NCBI GenBank assembly: GCA_028864975.1
Contig: JAGWLG010000008.1
Coordinates: 32,001-96,000 of the forward strand
From: Thermoplasmata archaeon
GTDB taxonomy: Archaea; Thermoplasmatota; Thermoplasmata; Lutacidiplasmatales; UBA184
Direction of reading: 5' to 3'
Length of the DNA stretch: 64,000 nucleotides
The position numbers were made by a program, and so were the translations under genes. Position 1 is the first letter of the stretch; each line of letters opens with the position of its first letter. The notes beneath the pieces are model-generated. The model made no database searches, was not told the origin of the DNA, and saw only the letters and a list, made by a program, of their open reading frames with translations. Shown in pieces: positions 6,373 to 57,828 of the stretch.

Positions 6373-7370
6373 TAGACCCCCGGCGCGAAGCTGCTCTTGC
6401 TCGTGCCCTTCTGTACGTAGAGGGACCGGTTGAATCCCACGAACCAGACGACCGGCGCTATAATGAGATAGAGGAAGAACCAGATGGGCATGGACCAGAA
6501 CAGCGCGATGGGTAGGAGCAGATAACTGGCCGCCTCTCCCAATCCGAGGAGCCTCATCCCCTTCGGACGGTTGTACGGCCCGCTCCGGAAGAGCTTCGCT
6601 TCGTACCCTCCGAACACGAGCACCGCGAGCAGAACTGTCACCCACCACCACCATGTCCACTCCCGGAGGAACAGCGAAATCGTCAGCACCTTAAGTGCGA
6701 CGAGGAATGTGATGAGCAGGCCGACGTCCGTGGATGTCGTCATCCGGCCCTTCTCCACTTTGCTCCCGAGCGCACGGAGCAGATTCCGTTCGTGCCCGGC
6801 CTCAAGCTCCTTCCACTCGCCGCCCCCCCATATTTGAGCTAGAACGTAACTGGTTACGAATAGGAATAGCGGCCACACTACGACACCATTCCACACTGCC
6901 GTTACAGCAAATGCGAGGAAACCGTAGCTCAACGCTATGGAAAGACCCGCTGCCAATTTGTTCTCTTTGCCCCGATGGTTATAGTAGAAACCTAGGGCGA
7001 TGAATAGGAGGAAGGGCAGGAGCGTCCACGTCGTGTGCCTCAACCCCACCAGGTAGACGAACATTGCCACGGAGATGGCCTGGCAGAGTCCGACCGCGAC
7101 CCACGCTTCGCCGAACGTCATGCGTCCTGCGATGAGCGGATGGTCGGCCTTGTCACCGGTCAGCGCGGCCTGTTTCTTGTCATACTCGTAGTCACTGACA
7201 GAGTTCTCCCCGAACGCTCCAAAATGTTCTAGCACCCCGAGCAGCACGAAGTACGGGAGCCAAATCCAGGGCGCTCCGCCGAGCCAACCGGCGAGGGCGA
7301 ACAGACCAACCTCTACCGCGGCGGTCTGGGCCCGGAAGAGGATTCCAAAGTCTCTCACTGAGGTCGGCAC
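6372..7370 (-). CDS. UbiA-family prenyltransferase 2
   Basis: Multi-TM. NSVSDYEYD...HPLIAG is present; the second acidic motif is degenerate (KELEAGHE). Confidence 0.75.
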   Translation of the reverse strand: MPTSVRDFGILFRAQTAAVEVGLFALAGWLGGAPWIWLPYFVLLGVLEHFGAFGENSVSDYEYDKKQAALTGDKADHPLIAGRMTFGEAWVAVGLCQAISVAMFVYLVGLRHTTWTLLPFLLFIALGFYYNHRGKENKLAAGLSIALSYGFLAFAVTAVWNGVVVWPLFLFVTSYVLAQIWGGGEWKELEAGHERNLLRALGSKVEKGRMTTSTDVGLLITFLVALKVLTISLFLREWTWWWWVTVLLAVLVFGGYEAKLFRSGPYNRPKGMRLLGLGEAASYLLLPIALFWSMPIWFFLYLIIAPVVWFVGFNRSLYVQKGTSKSSFAPGV

Positions 7371-8503
7371 AGGACCTCCCGTAGTCGTCGCATACAGTCC
7401 CCCGGGTTTTTCTTCAAGTCGGTCTCCCAGAACCTAATCACACTCCACCCCATGGCCCGTAATTCATTATCCTGCCGCTTGTCCTTGGCCACCACGAACC
7501 GCTGTGTGCTGTTTATTGGTCCGTCAGGGTAGAATCTCGGGTCGCAGTGCCAATACTTGCCGTCTGCGAATAGGGCGACCTTCTGTGCCCTCACAACGTA
7601 GTCAGGTTGACAGACTCCCTCAATTGGGACGTGGTCATCAAATGTCACGTTCATCTGTTCCAGGAGACTGCGTAGAGTCAACTCCGGTATCGCGTCCCTC
7701 TTGGGATACCTTCGACCGATGGCTGCGAGCCGTATCCTTTCCCTCGTCTCAGCCGGGCGCTTGCGCCCCGTATGGTACCTTCTTATGGCCGATTTCACGT
7801 ACTCACTCTTATCCCTGCATTCACGAGAGCAGAACATCTGCGGCAATGTTACACGAACACGAAACGTGCCTCCACAGGTAGGGCATACCTTCGTGGCTAT
7901 GGGTACTCTTCTGTGGAATGGGTCTGCGCCAATCACTCTGAGCCAGCATTCTCGTGAACAATACTTCTTGTCCTTCCTCCATACTTTGTGTTCTTTGCAC
8001 GCTGGGCATTGGCGTGGCGGGTGTGGTACCCTTGGTCCCCTGGAAACATTGGCTCTCCTTCGCTCAGTGAGGAACCGTTCTGGCGATGTACGCCAGAGTC
8101 TCGTCATCTTTCGTGCTTGATTTGGTCTTGGTGCTCGGACCCTCTTCAGCGTCTCAGGCTGACGCGCGAGCCATCTAGCCGCACATAACTGGGAACAGAA
8201 CTTTCTACGGGCGGCCCTACCTGGGTGACCACGGTAGTAGTCCGGTAGAACAATGGATACCCCGCAGTTGACGCACATCTTTGGGGCAGTCGGGGGGAGG
8301 TCCTTCATCCTCTGTCTCGATAGCTCACGTTGATTGAACGTGTTCGCACAGAGGTGTGAGCAGAACACTCGCTGTGTTGGTCCCTCCAGCCTCGTCCCAC
8401 ACTCACGACATACCTTTGGAGGGGTCGGAGGTAGAACTTCCATTGCTGAGGTGGACGTCGCCGCCTCCGGCCCTGTCTCCGATTCAATCGCTGGCGCTGA
8501 CAC
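7355..8503 (-). CDS. Vsr/DUF559-like endonuclease with Zn-finger repeats and NUMOD3-like motif (homing endonuclease-like)
   Basis: Repeated CxxC...FCSxxC, then HTGRKRPAETRERI, and C-terminal PDY...FADGKYWH...D...GWSVIRFWE. GC visibly lower than flanks. Confidence 0.8.
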   Translation of the reverse strand: MSAPAIESETGPEAATSTSAMEVLPPTPPKVCRECGTRLEGPTQRVFCSHLCANTFNQRELSRQRMKDLPPTAPKMCVNCGVSIVLPDYYRGHPGRAARRKFCSQLCAARWLARQPETLKRVRAPRPNQARKMTRLWRTSPERFLTERRRANVSRGPRVPHPPRQCPACKEHKVWRKDKKYCSRECWLRVIGADPFHRRVPIATKVCPTCGGTFRVRVTLPQMFCSRECRDKSEYVKSAIRRYHTGRKRPAETRERIRLAAIGRRYPKRDAIPELTLRSLLEQMNVTFDDHVPIEGVCQPDYVVRAQKVALFADGKYWHCDPRFYPDGPINSTQRFVVAKDKRQDNELRAMGWSVIRFWETDLKKNPGDCMRRLREVLCRPQ

Positions 8504-8556
8504 TACGACGCCACCTCAGCGCAAGGGATAGGGAATTTCTTGCTGATAACGATTCC

Positions 8557-8577
8557 GGACGGGGAGGCTTTGAAAAC
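8557..8577. repeat. Left TSD and terminal inverted repeat
   Basis: GGACGGGGA followed by GGCTTTGAAAAC. Confidence 0.9.
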
Positions 8578-8604
8578 AGTTGACCGGAAACCGCACATCC
8601 GTTC

Positions 8605-9864
8605 TCACGCGACCCGAACCGTTCCCACGAACTGAGGGGCGATGCCGTGCTCGAACATCTCGTGGACGACCACCGACAGGTTGTAGCAGATCAGCTTCGC
8701 CAAGACCTCGTTCGCCTGGGCGACCGGCGTCCTCGACCGGATGTTCTCCCCGAACTTGCGCTTGAGGGCCGAGAAGACCGATTCGACGTTGGACCTGACG
8801 TGGTAGCTCGCGTCGAAGGCGTCCCGGCACGCCTGGAAGAGGTGGAAGGCTTTCTTCCACGCGGGGGAGCCCCCCGCGTCGGGGATCGAGTTCGACTTGA
8901 ACGGGATGAGGGCGTGGAGCCCCAGGTCCTCGGCGAGTTGGTAGTTGTCGCGGGAGAGGTATCCCTTGTCGGCGGGGACCGTCGCGGGCCTGAACCCGGC
9001 TTCGAGCGCCCCACGCACGAGCGGGGCGAACTGGGGGCAGTCCGCCGAGTTCGCGTCGCCGACCACAGCGCCAATCACGATGTGGGTCTTGGTCCCGACG
9101 ATGGCGTGGACCTTGAGCCAATGCTTCGTCCGCTTCTCGCCGTGCTTCTCCTCGCGCCAGCCGCCGAACGAGGTCGTCTGGACGCCGGTGGAGTCGGGGG
9201 AGATTGCCCCGCCGTCCTCAAGGCCGGCCAAGGGGAGGGCGCTCTGCGTCAGGAGGTGGTAGAGGACCGCCGTTGCCTCGGGGCGGTTCAGGCAGTTCGA
9301 GGAGACGGCGTAGCTCGGGGCTCGGGTGAGGAGCCCCCGGTCCGCGACATTCAGGTGGACACCGTGGGCACGGCGGGCCGAGAGCCCCGAGTATACCTTC
9401 AGAACCGCGCAGTAAAGATCGTCCTTGAAGGGGGTCGGGGCCGGTCCCGGCATCCCGACCGGGCGGGGCATGTCGGGGACGCCACTCACCAGGTCGCGGA
9501 GGAGCGAGTCCACGAGGCGCATCTCCTCGGTCTGGCCTTGGGTGTAGCTCTGGTGCTGGGCGTACTGCTTGCGAGGCTTCTTGGTCGGGAGTTCGAGGCT
9601 CTGGCCGGACTCCCGGAGCCGAAGCTCCCACGCGGCCAGGATGTGCTTGCAGGGAAGGGTCCTCTTGGAGAAGTCGGGGCACGAGCACCGACCCTCGGCG
9701 ACTCCGAGGAGTTCGACGCGGTAGCGCCCGAAACCACTCTGGGAGGGGACGCTCCACTCGCTGTCGCCCAGCCGCTCGACCTGCTCCGGGTGGAGGGCGA
9801 TTTCCCTCGCTCGGGCCATTCTCTCGGTCGTTCCTGTCAGGTCGATGGTCGCCATCTTTCGCAC
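8605..9864 (-). CDS. SWIM zinc finger + DDE_Tnp_1 (IS4/IS5-like) transposase
   Basis: CSCPDF...CKH (SWIM), DSTG, ADKGY and YHVRSNVESVFSALK (YREK signature). Confidence 0.9.
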   Translation of the reverse strand: MRKMATIDLTGTTERMARAREIALHPEQVERLGDSEWSVPSQSGFGRYRVELLGVAEGRCSCPDFSKRTLPCKHILAAWELRLRESGQSLELPTKKPRKQYAQHQSYTQGQTEEMRLVDSLLRDLVSGVPDMPRPVGMPGPAPTPFKDDLYCAVLKVYSGLSARRAHGVHLNVADRGLLTRAPSYAVSSNCLNRPEATAVLYHLLTQSALPLAGLEDGGAISPDSTGVQTTSFGGWREEKHGEKRTKHWLKVHAIVGTKTHIVIGAVVGDANSADCPQFAPLVRGALEAGFRPATVPADKGYLSRDNYQLAEDLGLHALIPFKSNSIPDAGGSPAWKKAFHLFQACRDAFDASYHVRSNVESVFSALKRKFGENIRSRTPVAQANEVLAKLICYNLSVVVHEMFEHGIAPQFVGTVRVA

Positions 9865-9871
9865 GTCCTTG

Positions 9872-9957
9872 CTACCTATATGGCGACCTACGCATATAAG
9901 GTATAGGTAGCTAGGTAGGCGCGATAGACTATAAATAGGCTAGCGCCTATTAATAGG
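9872..9957. promoter_or_regulatory. Divergent AT-rich promoter/operator between transposase and AbrB gene
   Basis: Inverted repeat CTACCTATA (9872-9880) / TATAGGTAG (9902-9910), palindrome CCTATTAATAGG (9946-9957) and several TATA boxes. Confidence 0.7.
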
Positions 9958-9959
9958 TA

Positions 9960-10169
9960 GTGAGGTCGTCGGTGGAGACAACGAAGGTGGTGATTGCCCA
10001 AGCCAAGAGCAAGTCACTCCGCACGACTATCCCGGCCGGGATTGCCCGCCAGTTCAAGATCACGGCGGAGTCGGAACTCGGATGGGAGATTGAGGCGCGA
10101 GACAACGCCCTGGTGATTGTCGTCCGTCCGGTTTCGCCGCCCGCCAGACCGAACGAGGGAAAAGCCTGA
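9960..10169 (+). CDS. AbrB/MazE/SpoVT-type DNA-binding protein
   Basis: SLRTTIPAGIARQFKITAESELGWEI is a swapped-hairpin motif. Confidence 0.8.
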   Translation: MRSSVETTKVVIAQAKSKSLRTTIPAGIARQFKITAESELGWEIEARDNALVIVVRPVSPPARPNEGKA

Positions 10170-10445
10170 AGCGATTAGTAACCCGGGAGGACAGTTTGGC
10201 GGAGGAAGTTGTTGGGCACCTAGCACGTCGCTCGGCTCACACCCTCGACTTCAAATCCGCGTTCTTGAGTCGCCGCCTTCGTGTCTGGCTGGCGCTCCGC
10301 GGTCTTGGACGAATGGGGTGAGGATGGTTTGGCTCTCGCTCGTGCCCTCAAACAAACTGCCAAGCGCAAAGCATCCTGCATCTCAGATTTCGTCTCGACC
10401 ATCGAAGACCCGGGCACAATTCGCCCAGGGGGACGAACTAGTGAC

Positions 10446-12140
10446 ATGCCAAGATCATCCGGAAGCCTTCCGACGACCGCGTTGGACTCGGTCAAGACCC
10501 TGCTTGCGGGCACAACTCCTGAAGGGTCGGATCTGCGGCGGTTCGCGTTGAACACGGGACGGTTCTACACGCACGAATTCATCGGTCGGAGATTGGCGAA
10601 GGGAATCAGCAAGGCGCTGGGCGCACGGCTGAAAGGCCCTGTTTCGATTGTCGATCCGTTCTGTGGTGACGGAAGGCTCGTTGCCTGGTTTCTGGAGGAG
10701 ATTGGCACGAAGCCGATGGCTCGCGGGACGTCTCTCTCAGTCGACCTGTGGGATTGTGACGGGGCAGCTCTAAGGCAGGCTGCGAGGAGAGTCCAAGCGC
10801 TTTCCGACGACATGGGTTCAGTCATCGTGAACAGCCACCACTGGGATTCGTTCGACGGTGCTAGGCTACAATGGGGCCGGTTCGATTTTGTCCTGACAAA
10901 TCCTCCGTGGGAACTTCTAAAGCCGGATCCCCGCCAGATGCGCGGAATGCCCAAGGACGAGGCACTGCGGTTCTCGAAGAGCCTTAGGGAGGAAGACCGT
11001 AGGCTAACCGGCCTCTATCCCGCATCAGCTCCAAGAATCAGATACGCCGGGTGGGGGCTGAATCTCTCCCGATGCGGAACGGAAGCCGCCGTATCGCTCC
11101 TCAAGCCGGGGGGCCTGGGTGGAATCGTGGTTCCTGCGTCGCTGTTCGCTGACAACTCCAGCGGCGGTGTTCGCGAGTTGCTGACGACGAAGTTCGACCT
11201 CCTGTCTATGGACTATTTTCCATCTGAGGCTCATCTATTCCCAGGGACTGACCAACCTGCGGTGTCCGCCCTCGTTCGTCGTTCTGAGCCCAACGGTGTG
11301 TCGCTCGACCTCACCGTGTTCGATCGCGGGCTTGAAATTCGCAGCAATGGGCAGCTCAAGATTTCGAGGGAGGAGCTAGAACGGACTGATTTCGTGATTC
11401 CCGGACAGCTGCCAGCAAAGAGCTATTCCATACTGAGGAAGTTGAACCGACTGGGTGCGTTCGCCGAACTAGAAGGCGCCTCTCCTGCCGACCTCGTTGC
11501 CGGAAGAGAACTAGACGAGACGAGAATCGATGAGCGGCTCTCAAGCCGCGGCACTCATCGATTCGTCAAAGGCCGTATGGTCACCCGATTTCAGTCCGAC
11601 CTTCGCTCGGCCCGTTTCCTCCTTCCGAGCGTTGAGGTCCCTCCGTCCGCGGCTCACTGGAGAATCGCCTGGAGGGATGTCTCTCGGACGACTCAGGCGC
11701 GGCGTGTCAAGGCGACACTCCTCCCGCCAGGCGTCGTCACGGGGAACTCTCTCTCAATCGCTTACTTTCGCGACGACCACATGGCCCGGCTGAAGACACT
11801 TCTAGTGATCATGAACTCGGCAGTATTCGAATTTCAAATGCGACTGTGGCTCGCGACCCCTCACATCTCCCTCGGTGGGGTGCGAAGGGGACGGCTGCCG
11901 GCAAGCTGGAGTCCTAAGCAGCTCGCCGGAATGGCCCGCGTTTGTGACGGATGCTTAGCCGGGGAGCCCTCCTCCCTGATTGAGGCGGAGGTACGAGTTG
12001 CCCAGGCATACGGACTAGACCGTCGAGAGTTCGGGGCCATTCTCGACGAGTTCGGGAGGCTCTCAACTCATGAGAAATGCCATCTACTCGATTCCGCCTG
12101 TTGGGAACGGGTTCCCGGCTGGCTGGAGAGGTCCCCGTAG
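10446..12140 (+). CDS. N6-adenine DNA methyltransferase (Alw26I/Eco31I/Esp3I-type, gamma class)
   Basis: GRFYT, IVDPFCGDG (motif I), NPPW (motif IV) and a C-terminal TRD-like region. Confidence 0.85.
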   Translation: MPRSSGSLPTTALDSVKTLLAGTTPEGSDLRRFALNTGRFYTHEFIGRRLAKGISKALGARLKGPVSIVDPFCGDGRLVAWFLEEIGTKPMARGTSLSVDLWDCDGAALRQAARRVQALSDDMGSVIVNSHHWDSFDGARLQWGRFDFVLTNPPWELLKPDPRQMRGMPKDEALRFSKSLREEDRRLTGLYPASAPRIRYAGWGLNLSRCGTEAAVSLLKPGGLGGIVVPASLFADNSSGGVRELLTTKFDLLSMDYFPSEAHLFPGTDQPAVSALVRRSEPNGVSLDLTVFDRGLEIRSNGQLKISREELERTDFVIPGQLPAKSYSILRKLNRLGAFAELEGASPADLVAGRELDETRIDERLSSRGTHRFVKGRMVTRFQSDLRSARFLLPSVEVPPSAAHWRIAWRDVSRTTQARRVKATLLPPGVVTGNSLSIAYFRDDHMARLKTLLVIMNSAVFEFQMRLWLATPHISLGGVRRGRLPASWSPKQLAGMARVCDGCLAGEPSSLIEAEVRVAQAYGLDRREFGAILDEFGRLSTHEKCHLLDSACWERVPGWLERSP

Positions 12141-12143
12141 ACA

Positions 12144-13337
12144 ATGGCCGGAGACATCACAAGGTCGGCGGGATCTGGGACGCCTGCTACGATACCAAAC
12201 CACTACTCCCCACGGCTAAGTGAACTGGACCTCCGCATGGTCAAGGCCATCCCTCCGGGGGGGAACTGGAAGTCGATTCCACTGGACATTCCGTCGAGAC
12301 GCCTCTCTCAGATACGGCGGACCTTTCTGTCGGGAAATGGCAGCAGGTCCACGTACTATGGTCGGCTTGACCCGGACATGCCGGCGTTCACAATCAGCAC
12401 CTGCATCAACAGACCCGGCAACGGTTGCTACATTCACTATGACTGGGAGGGGGGACAACACCGCCTAATTTCCCAGCGGGAGGCTGCCAGGCTTCAAAGC
12501 TTTCCGGATTGGTTCGCTTTCCAGGGCACTCGAGCCTCCGTCAATCGTCAGATTGGAAATGCCGTCCCACCCCTTCTTGCGCACCACGTAGCGCGGAAAT
12601 TGGGACGCCCGGGTGTCTTCGTCGACCTGTTCTGCGGCGCGGGTGGGCTTTCCCTCGGGTTCAAGATGGCTGGATGGACCCCACTGATTGCAGTGGACCT
12701 CGACCCGAGTGCAGTCGCCACATATGGTCAGAACGTCCACGAGTCCGTGGTCGCGGGCTCGATAGAGGACGATGCGGTTTTTGAGGCGCTGCTCGAGAAA
12801 GTTGGCGAGCTTCGGCCGTCCGACCAACCCATGTTTGTAGTGGGGGGGCCGCCGTGTCAGGGATTTTCGACCGCGGGTAATCGGCGCTCAACCGCCGATC
12901 CGAGAAACTCTCTGTTCCGCCGCTTTAGCATGTTTATCGAAGAGGCACGACCCGACGGTTTCGTTTTCGAGAACGTGCCTGGGATTCTGAGCATGGACCG
13001 CGGCCGGTTCTTCGGTGTTATCCTTCACGAACTGTCAAAGCACGTCGCCGGAGTCAGTCACTGGCAGCTTGCAGCCGTTGAATTCGGAGTTCCGCAGCGC
13101 AGGCGCCGTGTATTCGTGGTCGGGCGACGGAACCAATCCGGGAAGCTCAGCCCCCCGGCCCGCGTGACTCGCCTCCCAGACGGCCAATCCTCTTTGGATG
13201 GTGTCGCAAGAGCCATCTCGGTAAGAGAGGCCCTGAGCGATCTGCCGCCGCTAGTTGCGGGTGAAGATGGAAGCCATCTCGACTACGTTCACGCTCCAGA
13301 AGGTGCTTACCAAGAACTCATGAGGAGAGGGCGTTAG
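12144..13337 (+). CDS. Circularly permuted C5-cytosine DNA methyltransferase
   Basis: Motifs IX-X (REAARLQSFP, QIGNAVPP) precede motif I (DLFCGAGG), IV (GPPCQGFS), VI (ENV) and VIII (QRRRR). Confidence 0.9.
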   Translation: MAGDITRSAGSGTPATIPNHYSPRLSELDLRMVKAIPPGGNWKSIPLDIPSRRLSQIRRTFLSGNGSRSTYYGRLDPDMPAFTISTCINRPGNGCYIHYDWEGGQHRLISQREAARLQSFPDWFAFQGTRASVNRQIGNAVPPLLAHHVARKLGRPGVFVDLFCGAGGLSLGFKMAGWTPLIAVDLDPSAVATYGQNVHESVVAGSIEDDAVFEALLEKVGELRPSDQPMFVVGGPPCQGFSTAGNRRSTADPRNSLFRRFSMFIEEARPDGFVFENVPGILSMDRGRFFGVILHELSKHVAGVSHWQLAAVEFGVPQRRRRVFVVGRRNQSGKLSPPARVTRLPDGQSSLDGVARAISVREALSDLPPLVAGEDGSHLDYVHAPEGAYQELMRRGR

Positions 13338-13369
13338 TCCTTCGAACGCCTGGGGGAACCCGGGAGACG

Positions 13370-14668
13370 ATGACGGCACTCCAAACTGGCAATCCGACCC
13401 TCTACGCACTTGCTCTCGACCGACTCGCAAGGCACAAGAGCCAGATTGGCCGAGAATTCAAGGGACGATTCATCCAAATCTTCCTCGCTCTCAAATTCTT
13501 TCAGAACAGTATCCCGAGCATGTTTTCCGGTAAGTTCGTCTCAACTGAGTCTCTTCAAACCCTCCTCGACAACCTCTACGCTAGGCACTCTCGGCCTCCA
13601 GGCGAGTGCGTACTGATGGTGTTTGAAGGCACCTACCTCGCCCGAACTGGTGTGGTTGGTACATCGAACACTGTGGCTCAGAACACTTGGCGGAACAACT
13701 TCAACTTACAGAAGGGGGTTGGGTGCTATGCATCTCGCCAAGAACTTTCAAGTCCCACATTCCTCGCCCAGCCGCGTCATGACTGTACCCACCTCGTTCC
13801 AGCTGTCGCGGGGAGCTTGAATGGGGCCAAGTGCGCCCTCTCTCCCAGAGGAGCGGCTTATCGGAGTGAGGAGCACGCCAAGTGGTTGAGAATTGACCAC
13901 GGGGGAAATGGATATGCCGTCGCCGACCTGATGAACGTGGATAACTTCAAGGGAGTCCTCGCCCCTGGAGGCCGACGGCTGCCCGTTGACCCCCTGATTG
14001 TGGCGCTCTACCACGACGCCCTCCCGAGCAGGTCCGCGATCCGCCCCCAAGGCGTCGAAGTCAGCGATTTCAAGGCGGATTTTTCCCTCTCCCCCTCAGA
14101 ATTCTCTGCATACTTCGACGACAGCGCGTCCAATCCGGATAACGGTGCGATTCGATCCGCGTCGGGAGCGGCTCCTGTGCCCTTGGCTGGCGCCGCGACT
14201 CCAACACCGCTAGCGGCTCCCACTCCCCCTACACGTCGACCGTCAAGGGTGGCTGATTTGTCGGGCACACCCGTAGCCCCCCCGAGCGTGAACTCTGGCT
14301 GGTCTGCGGAGGAATTTGTGAGGCAGGCGTTGATTAATCTCGGGTGGGCGACCGTTAACGTTTCCAGACAGCAGCTAGGATACGACTTGCTAGGCCAGCG
14401 TGGGAAAGCGACACGCTTCTTCGAGGTCAAGAGTTCCCTAGGGTACTGTTCTCCTCGCCTCACCGAAAGAGAGTGGGAGCAGGCGACTCAGCTGGGGAGT
14501 GACTACATTCTCGCCATCATCGAGAACTTCAACCCAGATGGGACGAACGAGATTTTCTGGGTGCCCAATCCCGCCGGGACCTGTGCCGCGACCGCGTCGT
14601 TGACCACCCAGTTCGGCATTGCTCGGCATGTGTGGCAAGCCGCTGCCGTCGACTCAATCGGCCTGTAG
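13370..14668 (+). CDS. Putative restriction endonuclease with C-terminal DUF3883 (PD-(D/E)xK) domain
   Basis: AEEFV...GYDL...FEVKSS...LTEREW. Lies directly after the MTase pair. Confidence 0.75.
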   Translation: MTALQTGNPTLYALALDRLARHKSQIGREFKGRFIQIFLALKFFQNSIPSMFSGKFVSTESLQTLLDNLYARHSRPPGECVLMVFEGTYLARTGVVGTSNTVAQNTWRNNFNLQKGVGCYASRQELSSPTFLAQPRHDCTHLVPAVAGSLNGAKCALSPRGAAYRSEEHAKWLRIDHGGNGYAVADLMNVDNFKGVLAPGGRRLPVDPLIVALYHDALPSRSAIRPQGVEVSDFKADFSLSPSEFSAYFDDSASNPDNGAIRSASGAAPVPLAGAATPTPLAAPTPPTRRPSRVADLSGTPVAPPSVNSGWSAEEFVRQALINLGWATVNVSRQQLGYDLLGQRGKATRFFEVKSSLGYCSPRLTEREWEQATQLGSDYILAIIENFNPDGTNEIFWVPNPAGTCAATASLTTQFGIARHVWQAAAVDSIGL

Positions 14669-14738
14669 AATTGGCTCTCTTCGAGAAGCGTTCTCACGCC
14701 CATCGATCCGTTCTCAGAAAGGCCCCGGGGGGCTATCC

Positions 14739-14759
14739 GTTTTCAAAGCCGGACGGGGA
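14739..14759. repeat. Right terminal inverted repeat and TSD
   Basis: GTTTTCAAAGCC followed by GGACGGGGA. Confidence 0.9.
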
Positions 14760-14797
14760 CCACACATTTTATACTACCCCTCCGCTCTCCGCCGAGC

Positions 14798-15475
14798 ATG
14801 GCCAAGCGCGCCGGCAAGGAAGCTGCACCTCTCGTGGACACGACGACCCTCTACGTTGACCTCGGTCCGGACAACACGGCGAGGCTCAACGACGTCCTCC
14901 TCGACCTCAAGGAGAAGGAGAAGGACGAGAAGAAGCGCGCGAAGCTCACCCCGGAACGGCACATCAAGGACGTGCTCATCGTCACCGCGACGCAGTACTT
15001 CGCCGTCTACCGGAAGCTCCTCCGGGAAGGGAAGGTCCCCGCGCAGACGCAGCGGTTCACCGGAGAGGTGCTGAAGTGGATGCCGCGGAAGGAATACGCG
15101 CCGCTCAACTACGAGCCCATCCCACCGGAGGGGGTGCACCGCGTCGGCTTGTCGGTCGATGTGGGTCCCAAGCTCCTGAAACAACTGGGCTGGGCCGCGG
15201 GGCTGATGAACACCGCGAACCGGCTCACGAACACCGGCAACACCTGGAAGACGTTCGACTCCTGGCTCCTTGACCTCGTGCTCGACGACCTCGACGTCCG
15301 GGACAGCGCCCTGAACGCGGAGGACCTCAAGGAAGAGGACGAGGAGGTCGAGACGCAATCGACCCTCGGCGACGAAGAGGAAGCGGGAGAGGAAGAGGAG
15401 GCGGCTGACGGGGAAGAGACCCCGGCGCCTCCCTCTTCACCCGCCGCCCCGGCCTCGGCTGGAGGGAAGGCCTGA
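14798..15475 (+). CDS. Hypothetical protein with acidic tail
   Basis: TTTTATA box ~30 nt upstream and strong codon bias. Confidence 0.7.
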   Translation: MAKRAGKEAAPLVDTTTLYVDLGPDNTARLNDVLLDLKEKEKDEKKRAKLTPERHIKDVLIVTATQYFAVYRKLLREGKVPAQTQRFTGEVLKWMPRKEYAPLNYEPIPPEGVHRVGLSVDVGPKLLKQLGWAAGLMNTANRLTNTGNTWKTFDSWLLDLVLDDLDVRDSALNAEDLKEEDEEVETQSTLGDEEEAGEEEEAADGEETPAPPSSPAAPASAGGKA

Positions 15476-15476
15476 G

Positions 15477-15857
15477 ATGCTGCTCGGTCGCTTGGGCGGT
15501 CAGGGTCAACCCGGAGGGGGCGCGGGTCTCCTAGGAGGCCTGCGCGGTGGTGGCGGCGGCGCCGGCGGCGTCATGGTGACCCTCTCGTTCAAGGTCGTCT
15601 GGAAGAACGCGGACCCGACTAAGGTCATCCCCGTCCAGGAAGCCCAGGTCACCATCTTCGGGCCGCTCGGCATGCGACCGGTCGCCGTGGGCCCGGCCTG
15701 GGACAACCAGAACGGCAAGCTCTCCGTGCATCAGTTCCAGGTCGGACGACTTCCTCACCCGTACATGGTGACCATCCCGGGGATGGACCAACCGGTCCGC
15801 GGCCAGTGCAACTCGGGCCGGGACGAGGTCGTCACCATCCAAGTCCAGCAGGGCTGA
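15477..15857 (+). CDS. Gly-rich N-terminus plus small beta-sandwich protein
   Basis: Coupled to the preceding ORF; alternating beta-strand pattern. Confidence 0.6.
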   Translation: MLLGRLGGQGQPGGGAGLLGGLRGGGGGAGGVMVTLSFKVVWKNADPTKVIPVQEAQVTIFGPLGMRPVAVGPAWDNQNGKLSVHQFQVGRLPHPYMVTIPGMDQPVRGQCNSGRDEVVTIQVQQG

Positions 15858-15860
15858 ACT

Positions 15861-15891
15861 CCGGGGGACCTGCCTAACGCAGGCCCCCCGG
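15861..15891. terminator. GC-rich hairpin between convergent genes
   Basis: CCGGGGG..CCTGC/GCAGG..CCCCCGG stem. Confidence 0.5.
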
Positions 15892-15900
15892 TCCGCTGTC

Positions 15901-16851
15901 TCACGCCAACTGGAGCGTGAAGGCGATGGTCCCGTCGCCGACCTTGGGCACCGTGGTTCCGGGTGTCACCGACCAGGTCACACCGGCTGCGCCGTTCTGG
16001 AAGCTCTGGCCTTGGAGTTGAGCCGGCGGCGCCGGACTGAAGGGTGGCAGGAACACGGTGGCCTGCAACTCCAGGTAGTGCGTGGCGTCTGCGGTGAACG
16101 TCGAGGCCTCCGTGAGGGAGTCCCCGTTCGCGGCGACCGCGGTCCCCGAGGCCGTGTAGGTCGCCGTGGAGTTCGAGGCGACCATCACCAACTGGTCGAG
16201 GATGGTCTGCCCGACGGTGTAGACCCCCAGGTCCTGCGCCTGGAACGCCTCGATGCTGGAGGCCTCCCCACCGGTCAAGGCGACCGTGGAAGGGACCTGG
16301 GTCAGCCGTACGACTCCGCCAGCGAGACGGGTCCCGACGCCGGCGCTCTGGGCGCTCCCGGTTGACCCGGTTGTGGTCTTCGCCTCCGGCCGGAAGCCGT
16401 GGATGCGGAAGGTCATCCCGGTGTTCGGCAGCAGAGCCGCCGGCACCGTCGTCCCCGCGCCACCGGCGAGGATGGCGACTGGGGTCGTGGAGCCCTTCGG
16501 CTGGTAGAGGATGTTCAGCCCCTGCGACGGGTTCGAGTAGTCGAGGGTGACGATGTCCTGGGGTTCGAGACCGACCTCGATGAGGAGGGTGACCGCACCA
16601 CCCCTGACCCCGGCCGCGGTGACGCTCGCCACCAGCACTGTCGGGAGGATGGGCTTGAAGGTCGTCTTCTGGTTGGGGTTCACCGGCACGGCGCCGAGCC
16701 CGTTCTTGAAGAGCGACGGGTCCGTTGCCGTGATGGCCTCGAACATATCGTCGGTGATGGAGAAACCACCGGCGAAGACCGAGGCGGAAGGGTTCGTCAC
16801 GTAGGCGGCCGGCGCAGCGGCGAGCGCTGTGGCGAGGGGAGGCAGAACCAT
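15901..16851 (-). CDS. Beta-rich Ala/Thr/Gly protein, putative virion structural protein
   Basis: Low-charge composition typical of virion proteins; divergent promoter upstream. Confidence 0.6.
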   Translation of the reverse strand: MVLPPLATALAAAPAAYVTNPSASVFAGGFSITDDMFEAITATDPSLFKNGLGAVPVNPNQKTTFKPILPTVLVASVTAAGVRGGAVTLLIEVGLEPQDIVTLDYSNPSQGLNILYQPKGSTTPVAILAGGAGTTVPAALLPNTGMTFRIHGFRPEAKTTTGSTGSAQSAGVGTRLAGGVVRLTQVPSTVALTGGEASSIEAFQAQDLGVYTVGQTILDQLVMVASNSTATYTASGTAVAANGDSLTEASTFTADATHYLELQATVFLPPFSPAPPAQLQGQSFQNGAAGVTWSVTPGTTVPKVGDGTIAFTLQLA

Positions 16852-39441: not shown

Positions 39442-39825
39442 GTGCCCTTCAACCGGAAGACCGCCTGGCAGCTTCTCGTCAAGGGCGCTGTGTACCGCCC
39501 CTTCGCCATCGCGCTGGAGGTCCTCGCCACCTACCTGTGGTTCCACGGCTCTCTGACCTTCACGCTGCTCTTTGCGCCCGTCATCCTCATCACGAACTTC
39601 ATGCGGTTCGTGGGGTACGTCCTGTACGACTTCGTCTGGGCGAACCTGGTCCAGACCCGGTGGCACCTCAAGCAGCGGGGCCTCCACCGGCTCCATCTCA
39701 ACGGGAACGGGAATGGCAACCCCGCGCCCCAGGCTCAGCCGGCCCCCACCCCCCTCGAAGAACTGGAGAAGGAGGTAGAGAGCCTCTTTACGCAGCCGCC
39801 GACTTCCGGGGAACCGGGCACGTAG
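39442..39825 (+). CDS. DUF2061-like membrane protein
   Basis: LLVKGAVYRPFA...GYVLYDFVW pattern. Confidence 0.55.
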   Translation: MPFNRKTAWQLLVKGAVYRPFAIALEVLATYLWFHGSLTFTLLFAPVILITNFMRFVGYVLYDFVWANLVQTRWHLKQRGLHRLHLNGNGNGNPAPQAQPAPTPLEELEKEVESLFTQPPTSGEPGT

Positions 39826-39888
39826 CGCAGCAGGAGGCGCGTCTCGACGGCATCGAGAAGGCCGCGGGTTCGATTCCCGCCGTGTCCA
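39816..39888 (+). tRNA. tRNA-Ala(GGC) with non-canonical C33
   Basis: Full cloverleaf: acceptor GGGCACG/CGTGTCC with G3:U70 and A73; D stem GCGC/GCGC; anticodon stem TCTCG/CGAGA with loop ACGGCAT; T arm GCGGG-TTCGATT-CCCGC. No encoded CCA. Confidence 0.85.
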
Positions 39889-39895
39889 CTCAAAG

Positions 39896-55959: not shown

Positions 55960-57828
55960 TCATTCTACGCTCCAGAGCGTGTCCGACGCCTTGACCCGAT
56001 TGTAGAGCGCGGCTCGCCGGTTCTCCAGGTCTTCCTGTGGGATGGACTCCTTCACCGCCGGAAGCTCCTCGACGAGGCCGTTCGTCCTCAGCACCGACAG
56101 GTTGTTCCCGAAGGTCCCCCCGCTGGCCTCGTACCCGCTCTTCTCCCCAAGCTCGATTCTGGTCAGCGGGTTCGGGTGCTCCTGCTCCAAGACGTCGAGC
56201 ATCTTCCGCGGGCCCGCGGGCAGGTTGCGGTGCCACATCGCCATGACCTCTTCGTGGGTCTGGGGCGCGACCGGCTTCTCCCCGATGAACGCCATCCCAG
56301 CCTCGGAGGCTCGAACCGAGCCGTCCGCGGACTCGTCGAGGTACCCCGCCTTGCGCAGGATGGACAGTTGGTTCCCGAACGTACCACCGCCCGCGGCGTA
56401 TCCGGACAGCGTCCCTAGCTGGGACCTCGTGAGCGTGAGAGGGTGCCGACGCGCCAACTCGGTGAGCATCTTCAGCGCACCCTTGCCCAGGGTCACCTCC
56501 CCCTCCGGTTCGGCCCCAGCCAGCTTCGAGTGGTCCACTGGGAAGGAGCGCATCGGCGTCTCCGCCACCCTCCGGGCATGCTCAACGTCGGCTGGGTGGG
56601 CCTTCACGAAGGGTACGGCCTGCGGGACCGGTTGCTGGACAGGTGGCGACGCAACTCTACCCGGGTCGTCGGATGGTGCGAACCTCGGATACCCGTCCCA
56701 CCATTTCTGAACACCGCGCAGGTGCTTCTCCATCGCGCTCACGATGCCAGCGAGCCGGTGGGCCTCCTGCTGGTAGTGACTCGACTCCATGCGCAGCCTC
56801 GATACGAGCACCGGGTCCACGGTCGGCCCCGGGTCCGGCCGTGCCTTCGCCGCCTCCAGTTGCTTCTTCAGCGTCGCTAGCTCCGCGCGCAGCTTGGGCA
56901 CGTTCGCCGCCTCAGCTTTCTTCTCCGCGAGGACCTTGAACGTCTCCCCGAGCTTCGTCACGAGCGGCGCCACGTCCGTTGTGGTGACCCTCACCTTGAG
57001 CATCCCTGTCTTCCGGAGATGCGTCCGGTCCGGGTGGAAGGTCTCGAACTCCCGCACGAAGACCTTCTCGAAGCGCTGGAACTCCCGTGGGGACCAGAAG
57101 AAGCACTCGCGCACTTTGAGCGCGGCAAGCTCCCGGTCGAACTGCTCAAGTTGCTTCTCCGTGCCCCACGCCTCCACCCACTCGCGCAGGGCTTTCCGGT
57201 CCGGGGTTCCGGTGAGACCGAAGATGACCATAGTTCCGCACTGACAAAGTGCGTCCTTGTTCACCGTCGCCGCGCGCTGGGAGATTAACGTCACTCCAAG
57301 GCCCTTGTTCCTGCCCATCCTTACGATGCGCTCGACCGCGTCATACGTGGTCGCGTTGTCCGGGCGCACTGTCTGAGGCAGGACCTCCTTGGCCTCGTCA
57401 ATGACGAGCAGCCGGCTCGTGTCGTTGATGCCGTAGATGGTGTCGCAGAAGTCCTTCAGGAACCGGCGGTACGCGGCCTTCGGCTCCTCGGAGAAGTCGA
57501 TGACGCAGGATACGTTCGCCTCGACGATGGCCCTGGCGACCTCTGCGCCTGTGTTCGCGTTGAGCGGTAGGTCCTGGTGAGCCCCACCGATGACCAGCAC
57601 CGGGAGTCCTGGACTTTTCCCATCACGGGAACTCTTGATGCCCCAGCCGACACCGGCCGGGTCGAAGACCACGAAGGGGAGACCCACCCGAACTAGCTCC
57701 TCTTCGACTACTTTCAGTAGGCCCGATTTCCCGAGCCCACTTTGCCCGATTATTGCGGTCCGTGCCTCGATATACTCCTCCGCGGGCACAGAGAATCTTG
57801 CCCCGATATGCAGCACCTTCTTCGGCAC
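55960..57828 (-). CDS. HerA/FtsK-superfamily (DUF87-like) ATPase with C-terminal tandem wHTH
   Basis: GQSGLGKS, LLVIDEA, GRNKG...ISQR and two GGTFGNxLSxLRxxG repeats. Confidence 0.85.
   Translation of the reverse strand: MPKKVLHIGARFSVPAEEYIEARTAIIGQSGLGKSGLLKVVEEELVRVGLPFVVFDPAGVGWGIKSSRDGKSPGLPVLVIGGAHQDLPLNANTGAEVARAIVEANVSCVIDFSEEPKAAYRRFLKDFCDTIYGINDTSRLLVIDEAKEVLPQTVRPDNATTYDAVERIVRMGRNKGLGVTLISQRAATVNKDALCQCGTMVIFGLTGTPDRKALREWVEAWGTEKQLEQFDRELAALKVRECFFWSPREFQRFEKVFVREFETFHPDRTHLRKTGMLKVRVTTTDVAPLVTKLGETFKVLAEKKAEAANVPKLRAELATLKKQLEAAKARPDPGPTVDPVLVSRLRMESSHYQQEAHRLAGIVSAMEKHLRGVQKWWDGYPRFAPSDDPGRVASPPVQQPVPQAVPFVKAHPADVEHARRVAETPMRSFPVDHSKLAGAEPEGEVTLGKGALKMLTELARRHPLTLTRSQLGTLSGYAAGGGTFGNQLSILRKAGYLDESADGSVRASEAGMAFIGEKPVAPQTHEEVMAMWHRNLPAGPRKMLDVLEQEHPNPLTRIELGEKSGYEASGGTFGNNLSVLRTNGLVEELPAVKESIPQEDLENRRAALYNRVKASDTLWSVE

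Follow-up and report, generated by a model that had tools for sequence, protein, structure and literature searches.

A cargo-bearing transposon related to IS903, with a putative Type IIS-like restriction-modification system, in an uncultured Thermoplasmata archaeon

Boundaries of the element and its empty site

By inspection of the sequence, we delimited a 6185 bp element in an uncultured Thermoplasmata archaeon, at positions 8566-14750 of the window (the 64-kb stretch of DNA that we analysed). Its genes encode a transposase, an AbrB-like protein, an N6-adenine methyltransferase, a C5-cytosine methyltransferase, and a nuclease, which matches the list in the first-pass annotation. The features are:

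8557-8565, no strand: left copy of the target-site duplication, GGACGGGGA (9 bp, perfect)
8566-8577, plus strand: transposase-proximal terminal inverted repeat, GGCTTTGAAAAC, with the GGCTTTG tip in common with IS903B
8597-8627, minus strand: two 11-nt subterminal repeats, TGAGAACGGAT (8597-8607) and TGGGAACGGTT (8617-8627), 20 bp apart
8605-9864, minus strand: transposase of 419 amino acids with DDE_Tnp_1 and SWIM domains
9865-9959, no strand: AT-rich, putative control region from which the transposase and AbrB genes diverge, read from the sequence
9960-10169, plus strand: small protein of 69 amino acids with an AbrB/MazE fold (Pfam PF04014, E = 2e-4, below the cut-off)
10281-12140, plus strand: m6A (N6-adenine) DNA methyltransferase, probably of the Alw26I/Eco31I/Esp3I type (TIGR02987; PADLOC MTase_II)
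12144-13337, plus strand: C5-cytosine DNA methyltransferase, circularly permuted as judged by motif order
13370-14668, plus strand: candidate restriction endonuclease of 432 amino acids with a NOV_C/DUF3883 PD-(D/E)xK domain
14686-14716, minus strand: two distal subterminal repeats, TGAGAACGCTT (14686-14696) and TGAGAACGGAT (14706-14716), 20 bp apart and non-coding
14739-14750, minus strand: distal terminal inverted repeat, GGCTTTGAAAAC on the minus strand (the reverse complement of the proximal one)
14751-14759, no strand: right copy of the target-site duplication, GGACGGGGA (9 bp, perfect)

The terminal inverted repeats (TIRs) match at 12 of 12 positions, or at 16 of 20 if they are extended, and they lie with the perfect target-site duplication (TSD) exactly where they had been claimed. 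The 12-mer GGCTTTGAAAAC has just two sites in the whole 3.6-Mb assembly, which are the two ends of the element; these are also its only matches without mismatch in the window. The weight of the TSD comes from its directly adjoining both TIRs, not from its rarity. Since the flank ends in CC, the identical run at the junctions is 11 nt; a duplication of 9 bp is the correct reading because all 16 relatives (below) show 9-bp duplications. If the element is removed in silico, a 100-bp intergenic region remains between divergent ORFs with start codons at 8503 and 14798, in agreement with the divergent promoter region that had been predicted. A TTTTATA box lies about 26 nt upstream of the right-hand ATG.

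The first-pass annotation had suggested searching for other copies with different cargo. From Thermoplasmata metagenome-assembled genomes (MAGs) and metagenome contigs, we delimited 16 related elements of 3.5-7.5 kb, whose cargo varies. Perfect 9-bp duplications flank all 17 elements (the relatives and this one). (An informal look at the 17 duplications gave no evident target consensus.) Most family ends have GGCTTTG tips, and a few have GGCTTTA. Each of the 17 elements carries 2-6 kb of cargo, so that none is transposase-only. At least eight, including this one, encode DNA methyltransferases or restriction-modification (RM) genes of unrelated types: the relatives' examples are an Eco29kI-type RM system, a methyltransferase-Mrr fusion, and DUF6996/6997 with a methyltransferase. 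Other cargo includes TIR-domain and Panacea proteins, ParB with PAPS reductase, proteases, and proteins without a known function.

We considered that the TIRs and TSD might be a chance likeness, or the edge of a recombinase-mediated island, instead of the boundary of a DDE transposon. The 9-mer GGACGGGGA is indeed common by itself (4 occurrences in the window, as compared to 2.5 expected). But the 21-nt junctions of TSD plus TIR are mirror images, the TIR 12-mer is unique to the ends, and no integrase is encoded inside the element. Furthermore, all 16 delimited relatives have the same architecture, each with different 9-bp duplications. The unique 12-mer, this shared architecture, and the empty-site unitig described next refute the alternative, whose probability we put close to nil.

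To look at the locus in the likely source metagenome (run X1), we used assembly unitigs (k=31), which are contigs, not raw reads. The unitigs break exactly at 8565 and 14749. The occupied form is represented by a unitig that spans 8536-14778 (depth 11.1). A unitig of 49 nt (depth 5.2) maps to 8536-8554 plus 14749-14778; it reads left flank, a single GGACGGGGA, and right flank, with no mismatch to either flank. Its length is exactly that predicted for a k=31 bubble, and the depths of the flanks (14.2 and 15.5) are near 11.1 + 5.2. The first-pass annotation had staked its reading on just such an empty-site allele, and the reading withstands that test. Only some of the sampled population carries the element. 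The coexistence of empty and occupied alleles in the likely source sample supports the claim that the element was recently mobile, presumably by transposition.

Alternatively, the insertion might be old and immobile, and the 49-nt unitig might derive from a different, related replicon or strain, or be an artefact of assembly. This MAG has a single copy of the element (we did not find a second near-identical insertion of it), the evidence comes from contigs and not from raw reads, and the unitig is short: its left side has just 19-21 nt, which is less than the 31-nt bridging rule, and no joint is listed by that rule. Against this stand the mismatch-free flanks, the exact length, and the additive depths, and a strain that lacks the element at an otherwise identical site would still carry an empty-site allele. 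Perfect TIRs and TSD and an intact transposase with all of its catalytic residues also argue against an old insertion, and they agree with the earlier description of an intact element with a single transposase. We consider an old, immobile insertion to be improbable and recent mobility to be the better explanation.

That the element had inserted into a virus, as was also claimed, is not established. Of the ten large ORFs of the replicon that we compared to PHROGs, one has a virion or packaging label: an FtsK/HerA-type ATPase (55960-57828) matches a PHROG labelled terminase large subunit. No capsid gene was found among these ten ORFs, and the contig ends have no terminal overlap.

The transposase, its ends, and its partner gene

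In the transposase, a SWIM zinc finger near the N-terminus (residues 48-78, CxC...CxH) precedes a DDE_Tnp_1 domain (PF01609, E = 2.5e-28). We keep the earlier label of SWIM-DDE "transporter IS". Its best plasmid matches are the transposases of IS903B, ISAba12, ISRm33, and ISRusp1. In an alignment with IS903B, D224, D299, and E361 are invariant, as are Y354/R357/E361/K368, which form the Y(2)R(3)E(6)K signature. Over the catalytic domain, identity to IS903-type transposases amounts to only 24-31%, and the best NCBIfam model (NF033579, transpos_IS5_2) scores 119.4 bits, below its cut-off of 140, which implies that the transposase is a divergent relative and not a routine member.

IS903B and this element share more than the catalytic domain: both have a single transposase and GGCTTTG termini, and IS903B also generates 9-bp repeats (PMC9769513). 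The IS903B end that we examined (locus L051) reads GGCTTTGTTG... / GGCTTTGTTGAATAAATC..., and at this one copy there is neither a subterminal repeat array nor an AbrB partner gene. Nor does the IS903 transposase have a counterpart of the ~110 additional N-terminal residues that include the SWIM finger. And IS903 is a bacterial element of about 1 kb with no cargo, whereas the elements described here are archaeal, with sizes of 3.5-7.5 kb and 2-8 extra genes. From these sequence comparisons, the element is best placed in a lineage that is specific to Thermoplasmata and is related to the IS903 group (IS5 family).

Each end of the element consists of the GGCTTTGAAAAC terminus and two further copies of an 11-nt motif at a spacing of about 20 bp. 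The recurrence of CGTTCTCA near both ends, noticed earlier, is part of this pattern: its three copies (8600-8607, 14689-14696, and 14709-14716) lie within the 11-nt repeat TGAGAACGGAT (minus strand) and belong to a conserved, co-varying set. Exact copies of TGAGAACGGAT are found just twice in the window, both at most 45 nt from an end of the element. The proximal repeats are inverted with respect to the terminal copy, and the distal repeats are direct. Across the family's elements, the repeats have a density of 18.8 per kb in the ends as compared to 0.98 per kb internally, with a strand bias of 55 to 3 and fixed positions, and the motif co-varies between elements. Nearly all of the 17 family members have repeats at the same proximal positions, -42 and -62. 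The proximal repeats overlap the stop codon and the last codons of the transposase, so their conservation could be partly coding.

The AbrB-like gene is transcribed divergently from the transposase. The AT-rich region between them contains several boxes that resemble TATA and, at 9934-9951, a 7-4-7 palindrome (AATAGGC-TAGC-GCCTATT), which suggests a regulatory role. The AbrB gene is present as the first-pass annotation listed it, but we would not assign it to the RM cargo. The protein is 72-76% identical in three other elements (L033, L040, and L049) whose RM cargo is unrelated, and because of this we regard the gene, by sequence comparison, as conserved transposon core. (The orthologues in L033 and L040 score above the PF04014 cut-off.) Six more elements have weaker AbrB homologues in the same position.

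The putative restriction-modification cargo

The three cargo genes are tightly packed in one orientation. The m6A methyltransferase probably starts at the ATG at 10446 (564 amino acids) and contains the motifs DPFCGDG and NPPW. It matches positions 3-517 of the 523 in TIGR02987 (320.5 bits, E = 2e-95, under the cut-off of 353.5) and PADLOC's MTase_II model (1.4e-110), and it is 37% identical to a homologue from a Roseomonas plasmid. In the C5-cytosine methyltransferase, a motif X-like GNAVPP (around residue 138) precedes motifs I (FCGAGG163), IV (PCQ237), VI (ENV276), and VIII (QRRRR318). Such a circular permutation, with motifs IX-X before I-VIII, is found in the C5 methyltransferases of the Alw26I/Eco31I/Esp3I/BsaI group (PMC5944983).

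The candidate endonuclease has an N-terminal domain (residues 1-266) without a recognised fold, a disordered linker, and a C-terminal nuclease domain. Its putative catalytic residues are E314, D339, and E352-V-K354; across 40 homologues, D339 and K354 never vary, and position 352 is always E or D. With an AlphaFold2 model (pLDDT 81), Foldseek gave Holliday-junction resolvases first (Hjc 2eo0, E = 9e-5, TM 0.61 by target) and EcoRV second; DpnI was also found. The same order of genes (m6A methyltransferase, m5C methyltransferase, DUF3883) occurs on the Roseomonas plasmid CP099480.1. The pairing of this nuclease with the methyltransferases is suggested by that gene order in one bacterial plasmid, together with the modelled fold.

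The cargo resembles the Alw26I/Eco31I/Esp3I systems (BsaI, BsmAI, BsmBI, BcoDI) in combining a probable TIGR02987-type m6A methyltransferase with a permuted m5C methyltransferase; those systems have one methyltransferase per strand of an asymmetric site (PMC5944983). The two methyltransferases are separate polypeptides here, which is also the case in Eco31I. The m6A methyltransferase differs in falling below the family's trusted cut-off. R.Eco31I is an HNH enzyme, as are known Eco31I-type endonucleases according to a title cited in PMC5714182, and the NOV_C/DUF3883 PD-(D/E)xK nuclease is not related to it.

The transposon might be genuine while its cargo is not a working RM system, with orphan or epigenetic methylases beside an unrelated or inactive DUF3883 nuclease (such as a modification-dependent or repair enzyme). 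Besides the HNH precedent and the resolvases that lead the fold neighbours, this would account for several null results: no PADLOC endonuclease model matched the nuclease (only TmtA C-termini did), no PDB sequence matched it, no HNH family was found in it, and site counts showed no depletion of GTCTC-type sites, the kind that Alw26I/Eco31I/Esp3I-type systems recognise and outside of which they cut, in the replicon or genome. However, the packing and shared orientation of the genes, an order that recurs on the Roseomonas plasmid, the conserved catalytic E...D...(E/D)xK, and a two-domain structure with a linker, which is typical of Type IIS enzymes, all point to an RM system, and several sister elements carry classical pairs of methyltransferase and endonuclease. 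So we think that non-RM cargo is unlikely. As had been claimed, the system looks complete, with two methyltransferases and a PD-(D/E)xK nuclease, and RM activity is predicted. The most likely reading of the cargo sequence is a Type IIS-like RM system, from which any replicon that carries it would benefit.

Proposed mechanism and comparison with known systems

We propose that the element is, very probably, an intact and recently inserted unit transposon ("transporter IS") of an IS903-related lineage with a horizontally acquired Type IIS-like RM cassette. The transposase would bind the terminal and subterminal sites via its N-terminal region, pair the two structurally different ends, cut at the GGC tips, and integrate with a 9-bp stagger. 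The AbrB-like protein may act on the palindrome-bearing divergent promoter region and so control the transposase and possibly the cargo. In the cargo, presumably a horizontally acquired three-gene cassette, the m6A and m5C methylases would each modify one strand of an asymmetric site, and their partner would be the two-domain PD-(D/E)xK endonuclease.

One transposase and passenger genes lie inside a single TIR pair and one TSD, as in a unit transposon or a transporter IS (tIS, as defined by the authors of ISfinder), which has IS-like ends and one transposase that enclose passenger genes. The differences from tIS are the archaeal host and the cargo in every delimited member, in many cases an entire RM or defence module. 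The Tn7-like transposons that carry defence genes (PMC8649781) likewise have a cargo rich in defence systems and asymmetric ends with several repeats, which bind the transposase in Tn7 and are predicted to do so here. But Tn7 relies on several proteins (TnsA/B/C plus target selectors) and on dedicated attachment sites, and it duplicates 5 bp; here, a single DDE protein of the IS5 type goes with duplications of 9 bp. In the PIF/Harbinger elements of eukaryotes, an IS5-related DDE transposase works together with subterminal repeats and with another small protein, which the element itself encodes and which binds DNA. Their partner is a Myb/SANT protein, and Harbinger duplications are 3 bp. Here the partner has an AbrB fold and a proposed role, and we do not claim homology between the partner proteins.

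In 2019, a survey stated that no transposon with passenger genes had so far been detected in an archaeon (Krupovic et al., PMC6563490), and archaeal Tn7 family elements were not reported until 2025 (bioRxiv 10.1101/2025.07.27.667033). These IS903-like transposons with varying cargo, often DNA-defence genes, are apparently an undescribed family. A broader proposal, to which we give even odds, is that the element is the first recognised member of an undescribed archaeal family of unit transposons from an IS903-like ancestor, with a SWIM-finger DDE transposase, a co-inherited AbrB-fold partner, and asymmetric ends with three phased predicted binding sites each; that this family always carries cargo; and that it preferentially shuttles interchangeable RM or defence cassettes between Thermoplasmata chromosomes and large extrachromosomal elements. 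It would then be a one-protein archaeal counterpart of the bacterial Tn7-like transposons that carry defence genes.

The combination of an Eco31I-type methylase pair with a different nuclease fold would represent natural nuclease swapping within the Type IIS RM architecture. The ends are short, at about 100 bp each, and have phased repeats that vary along with the transposase, which is itself single and small. The system is therefore open to direct testing and might be developed into a genetic tool where archaea have none. DNA transposons that carry cargo have a central place in bacterial gene flow. This family, a simple one-transposase vehicle whose ends are known to the exact base pair, would account in part for the spread of RM and other defence genes among uncultured Thermoplasmata and onto large mobile replicons.

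Element boundaries, empty site and host replicon

The transposon occupies 6185 bp of the window (8566–14750). The ends and the perfect 9-bp target-site duplication (TSD) proposed in the first-pass annotation were borne out, as GGACGGGGA abuts both GGCTTTGAAAAC ends. The boundary features and the genes at the transposase end are:

8557–8565 and 14751–14759: TSD GGACGGGGA, both copies identical
8566–8577, and as the reverse complement 14739–14750: terminal inverted repeat (TIR) GGCTTTGAAAAC, directly inside the TSD copies
8605–9864 (-): transposase, 419 aa; DDE_Tnp_1, E = 2.5e-28; SWIM zinc finger at residues 48–78
Between the transposase and AbrB-like genes: AT-rich spacer of 95 bp with TATA-like boxes and a 7-4-7 palindrome (9934–9951)
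9960–10169: AbrB/MazE-fold protein, 69 aa, divergent from the transposase gene

By itself, the TSD 9-mer is unremarkable (4 occurrences in the window versus 2.5 expected); the boundary signal is the mirror-image 21-nt junctions rather than the 9-mer alone. Across the 3.6-Mb, 124-contig assembly, the TIR 12-mer occurs in only two places, which are the two ends of the element, and its reversed control has 0 occurrences. The element is single-copy in its own genome: neither a DNA search nor the search with the TIR 12-mer found a second copy there. Because the left flank, like the TIR, ends in CC, the identical flank run is 11 nt; 9 bp is the correct duplication length, since all of the relatives have 9-bp duplications.

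Evidence for an empty site comes from Logan unitigs (k = 31), not raw reads. Most of the stretch is covered by seven public runs of mine-drainage and soil metagenomes, which come from two studies. In run X1, the likely source sample, one unitig stops exactly at 8565, another begins at 14749, and a third (8536–14778, depth 11.1) comprises the element with 30-nt overlaps. A 49-nt unitig (depth 5.2) maps without mismatch to 8536–8554 plus 14749–14778. Since 8555–8565 equals 14749–14759, this 49-mer is identical to 8536–8565 followed by 14760–14778, that is, left flank, one GGACGGGGA, and right flank. Its length is 30 + 19 nt, as required of an empty-site bubble, and the depths of the two flanks, 14.2 and 15.5, come close to 11.1 + 5.2. 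Unitigs from run X2 break as they do in X1, and those from run X3 are continuous through both occupied junctions. By the rule applied, a bridging joint needs 31 nt to either side; the X1 unitigs gave none, and the 49-nt unitig falls short of this, so the empty-site reading rests on a de Bruijn-graph argument. The first-pass annotation had expected a single GGACGGGGA at an empty junction, and the X1 unitig, with one copy, bears this out. In 40 related genomes, BLAST of the right flank (14760–16000) found no homologous region. DDE elements seldom excise precisely; we take the empty allele to be ancestral and to predate the insertion.

The insertion lies within a 100-bp spacer between divergent ORFs and leaves intact the TTTTATA box of the right-hand gene, ~26 nt ahead of its ATG. 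At 119,883 bp, the host contig has 65.4% GC versus 67.4% for the genome; its ends have no terminal overlap of 11–200 nt, and its first 40 nt and its last 40 nt each occur only once. That the element had inserted into a virus, as the first-pass annotation suggested, is not established, because there is only one packaging-family match and no capsid or portal genes were found on the host replicon. This sole virus-type match is a HerA/FtsK-type ATPase (DUF87, HerA_C; 55960–57828, - strand), which matches phrog_2666, terminase large subunit (E = 3e-17); ten large ORFs were tested, and no other matched a virus packaging family. The replicon also has genes for tRNA-Arg(GCG) and tRNA-Ala(GGC), at 16495–16583 and 39816–39889 of the window. 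The tRNA-Arg is unusually long (89 nt) and may contain an intron or be a mis-call.

The predicted restriction-modification cargo

From its sequence, the cargo is best read as a horizontally mobile, predicted Type IIS-like restriction-modification (RM) cassette. The m6A methyltransferase has the motifs DPFCGDG and NPPW and a full-length match to TIGR02987 (the Alw26I/Eco31I/Esp3I family) at 320.5 bits, just under the cut-off of 353.5. The longest ORF shows homology from residue 92 onward, and a start at the ATG at 10446 yields a 564-aa product, which is a typical size. The m5C methyltransferase is circularly permuted, with GNAVPP (motif X-like) ahead of FCGAGG, PCQ, ENV, and QRRRR. This rare topology has been described for M.Alw26I, M2.Eco31IC, M.Esp3I, and M2.BsaI, as well as for M.BsmAI, M.BsmBI, and M2.BcoDI (PMC5944983). 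A single PADLOC model, a fused 1036-aa methyltransferase, matches the m6A and m5C genes in series.

The nuclease (432 aa) has over 200 homologues of ~435 aa at 48–62% identity, labelled only as DUF3883/NO VEIN, and a PDB sequence search with it gave no match. Its AlphaFold model (pLDDT 81) has an N-terminal domain, a disordered linker (268–296), and a C-terminal domain whose closest solved folds are archaeal Hjc resolvases and EcoRV or DpnI. D339 and K354 are invariant, either E or D occupies position 352, and 39 of 40 homologues have E314. The methylase half is Eco31I-like, and the nuclease fold differs from that of R.Eco31I, which is an HNH enzyme according to a title cited in PMC5714182.

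A plasmid tblastn for nuclease neighbourhoods gave one informative record: Roseomonas mucosa plasmid CP099480.1 has the same three genes in the same order, with a vsr gene directly ahead of them. In the window, the left-hand ORF beside the element (7355–8503, - strand) has cysteine-rich stretches in its N-terminal part and a C-terminus that resembles Vsr/DUF559/MTES_1575 nucleases. Its adjacency to the cassette may be a coincidence, because the empty-site allele shows that this gene predates the insertion.

GTCTC, GGTCTC, CGTCTC, and control Type IIS sites were not depleted in the host contig or in the rest of the genome. Within the element, GGTCTC occurs 0 times versus 4.2 expected, too weak a signal to rely on.

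Kinship with IS903 and known transposons

Against bacterial plasmids, the transposase matched only IS903-type members of the IS5 family (IS903B, ISAba12, ISRm33, and ISRusp1), at 25–31% identity over residues ~125–395. Its top NCBIfam model is IS5_2, with a score below that model's curated cut-off. Alignment with IS903B shows that D224, D299, E361, and the Y-R-E-K signature are retained, and that the first ~110 residues, including the SWIM CxC...CxH, are an addition relative to IS903B. An IS903B copy in a Klebsiella plasmid has an end that reads GGCTTTGTTGAATAAATC, and IS903B generates 9-bp repeats (PMC9769513). The element therefore resembles IS903 in its GGCTTTG tip, 9-bp stagger, and catalytic signature. 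Unlike the element, IS903 is compact and transposase-only.

IS elements with passenger genes (tIS) are already known (PMC7986276), as are Tn7-like transposons with cargo rich in defence systems (PMC8649781). Passenger-gene transposons had, according to Krupovic et al. (2019), not been detected in archaea (PMC6563490), and a 2025 preprint describes archaeal Tn7-family elements (bioRxiv 10.1101/2025.07.27.667033). Our literature searches (ISfinder was outside their scope) found no account of an IS903-like family with a SWIM finger, of unit transposons that carry RM genes in Thermoplasmata, or of archaeal tIS with RM systems.

Ends, core and cargo of the sister elements

A scan of prokaryotes with one genome per species found 17 transposase loci at 47–75% identity (15 labelled Thermoplasmata, one only "archaeon", and one "bacterium"), and a metagenome scan added 31. 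A close relative was not found in the IMG/VR viral collection. Requiring a GGCTTT-type tip, at least 12/20 TIR matches, and a 9-bp duplication, we delimited 16 distinct elements of 3542–7489 bp; the remaining loci run off contig ends. All 16 have perfect 9-bp duplications, whose sequences differ, and none is transposase-only.

In all 17 elements (including the window's), the terminal motif, which is TGAAAACGGAT in the window element, is present twice more at each end. The copies of CGTTCTCA that the first-pass annotation noticed near both ends are these conserved subterminal sites. The extra copies at the distal end, at about +25 to +35 and at +45 to +55, have the same orientation as the terminal copy. 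Those at the transposase-proximal end, at -42 and -62, are inverted, so all of the subterminal copies are on the transposase-sense strand. Motif density is 18.8 per kb at the ends versus 0.98 per kb inside, with a strand bias of 55 to 3. The motif varies among lineages (TGAAAAC, TGAAAC, TGAATC, TGTAGG, or TGCACC) and is the same at all sites within any one element. As the transposase is the only protein common to all 17 elements, we infer that its N-terminal region would read these sites. The two ends are predicted to be functionally distinct. At sister locus L065 (12654–12740), two candidate transposase-proximal ends, ending at 12654 and 12731, lie 77 bp apart, and the 9-mer GGTCCGAGA follows each of them; this may reflect duplication of the end or the remnant of a solo end.

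The window's AbrB-like protein is 72–76% identical to its counterparts in sister elements L033, L040, and L049, whose cargo is unrelated to the window's, and weaker homologues occupy the same divergent position in six further elements. The AbrB-like gene therefore belongs to the transposon core. We also considered that its main role might be as an RM controller, and set this aside since the gene is kept across elements with unrelated cargo. The protein would act on the divergent promoter region. L049 (64–6616) combines an AbrB-like protein at 74% identity to the window's with a transposase at only ~50% identity and a different end motif (TGTAGG). This points either to an exchange of modules or to the small protein being under far stronger constraint.

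The first-pass annotation had called for a search for other copies with different cargo, and the cargo of the 16 relatives is indeed varied. At least 8 of the 17 elements encode a DNA methyltransferase, alone or together with a nuclease.

Cargo of sister elements
L033, L034: N6/N4 methyltransferase and Eco29kI-type GIY-YIG nuclease
L035: split methyltransferase
L037, L057: methyltransferase-Mrr fusion
L038: ParB-N protein and PAPS reductase
L039: large methyltransferase, Panacea-domain protein, and TIR-domain protein
L040: DUF6996/6997 protein and methyltransferase
L042, L043: proteases
Several others: genes of unknown function

PADLOC had 0 matches among 10 of the unknown-function cargo proteins. 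In L035 (6982–8260), the N6/N4 methyltransferase is broken into ORFs of 211 and 169 aa, and this cargo gene is probably decaying within an otherwise intact transposon. The transposase gene of L036 (8339–12868) is central, with ~1.6 kb on either side, whereas it adjoins one end in other elements; the transposase-proximal end can therefore gain sequence too. The L036 transposase is 85% identical to those of L037 and L057, yet the cargo is different, so cargo turns over faster than the core.
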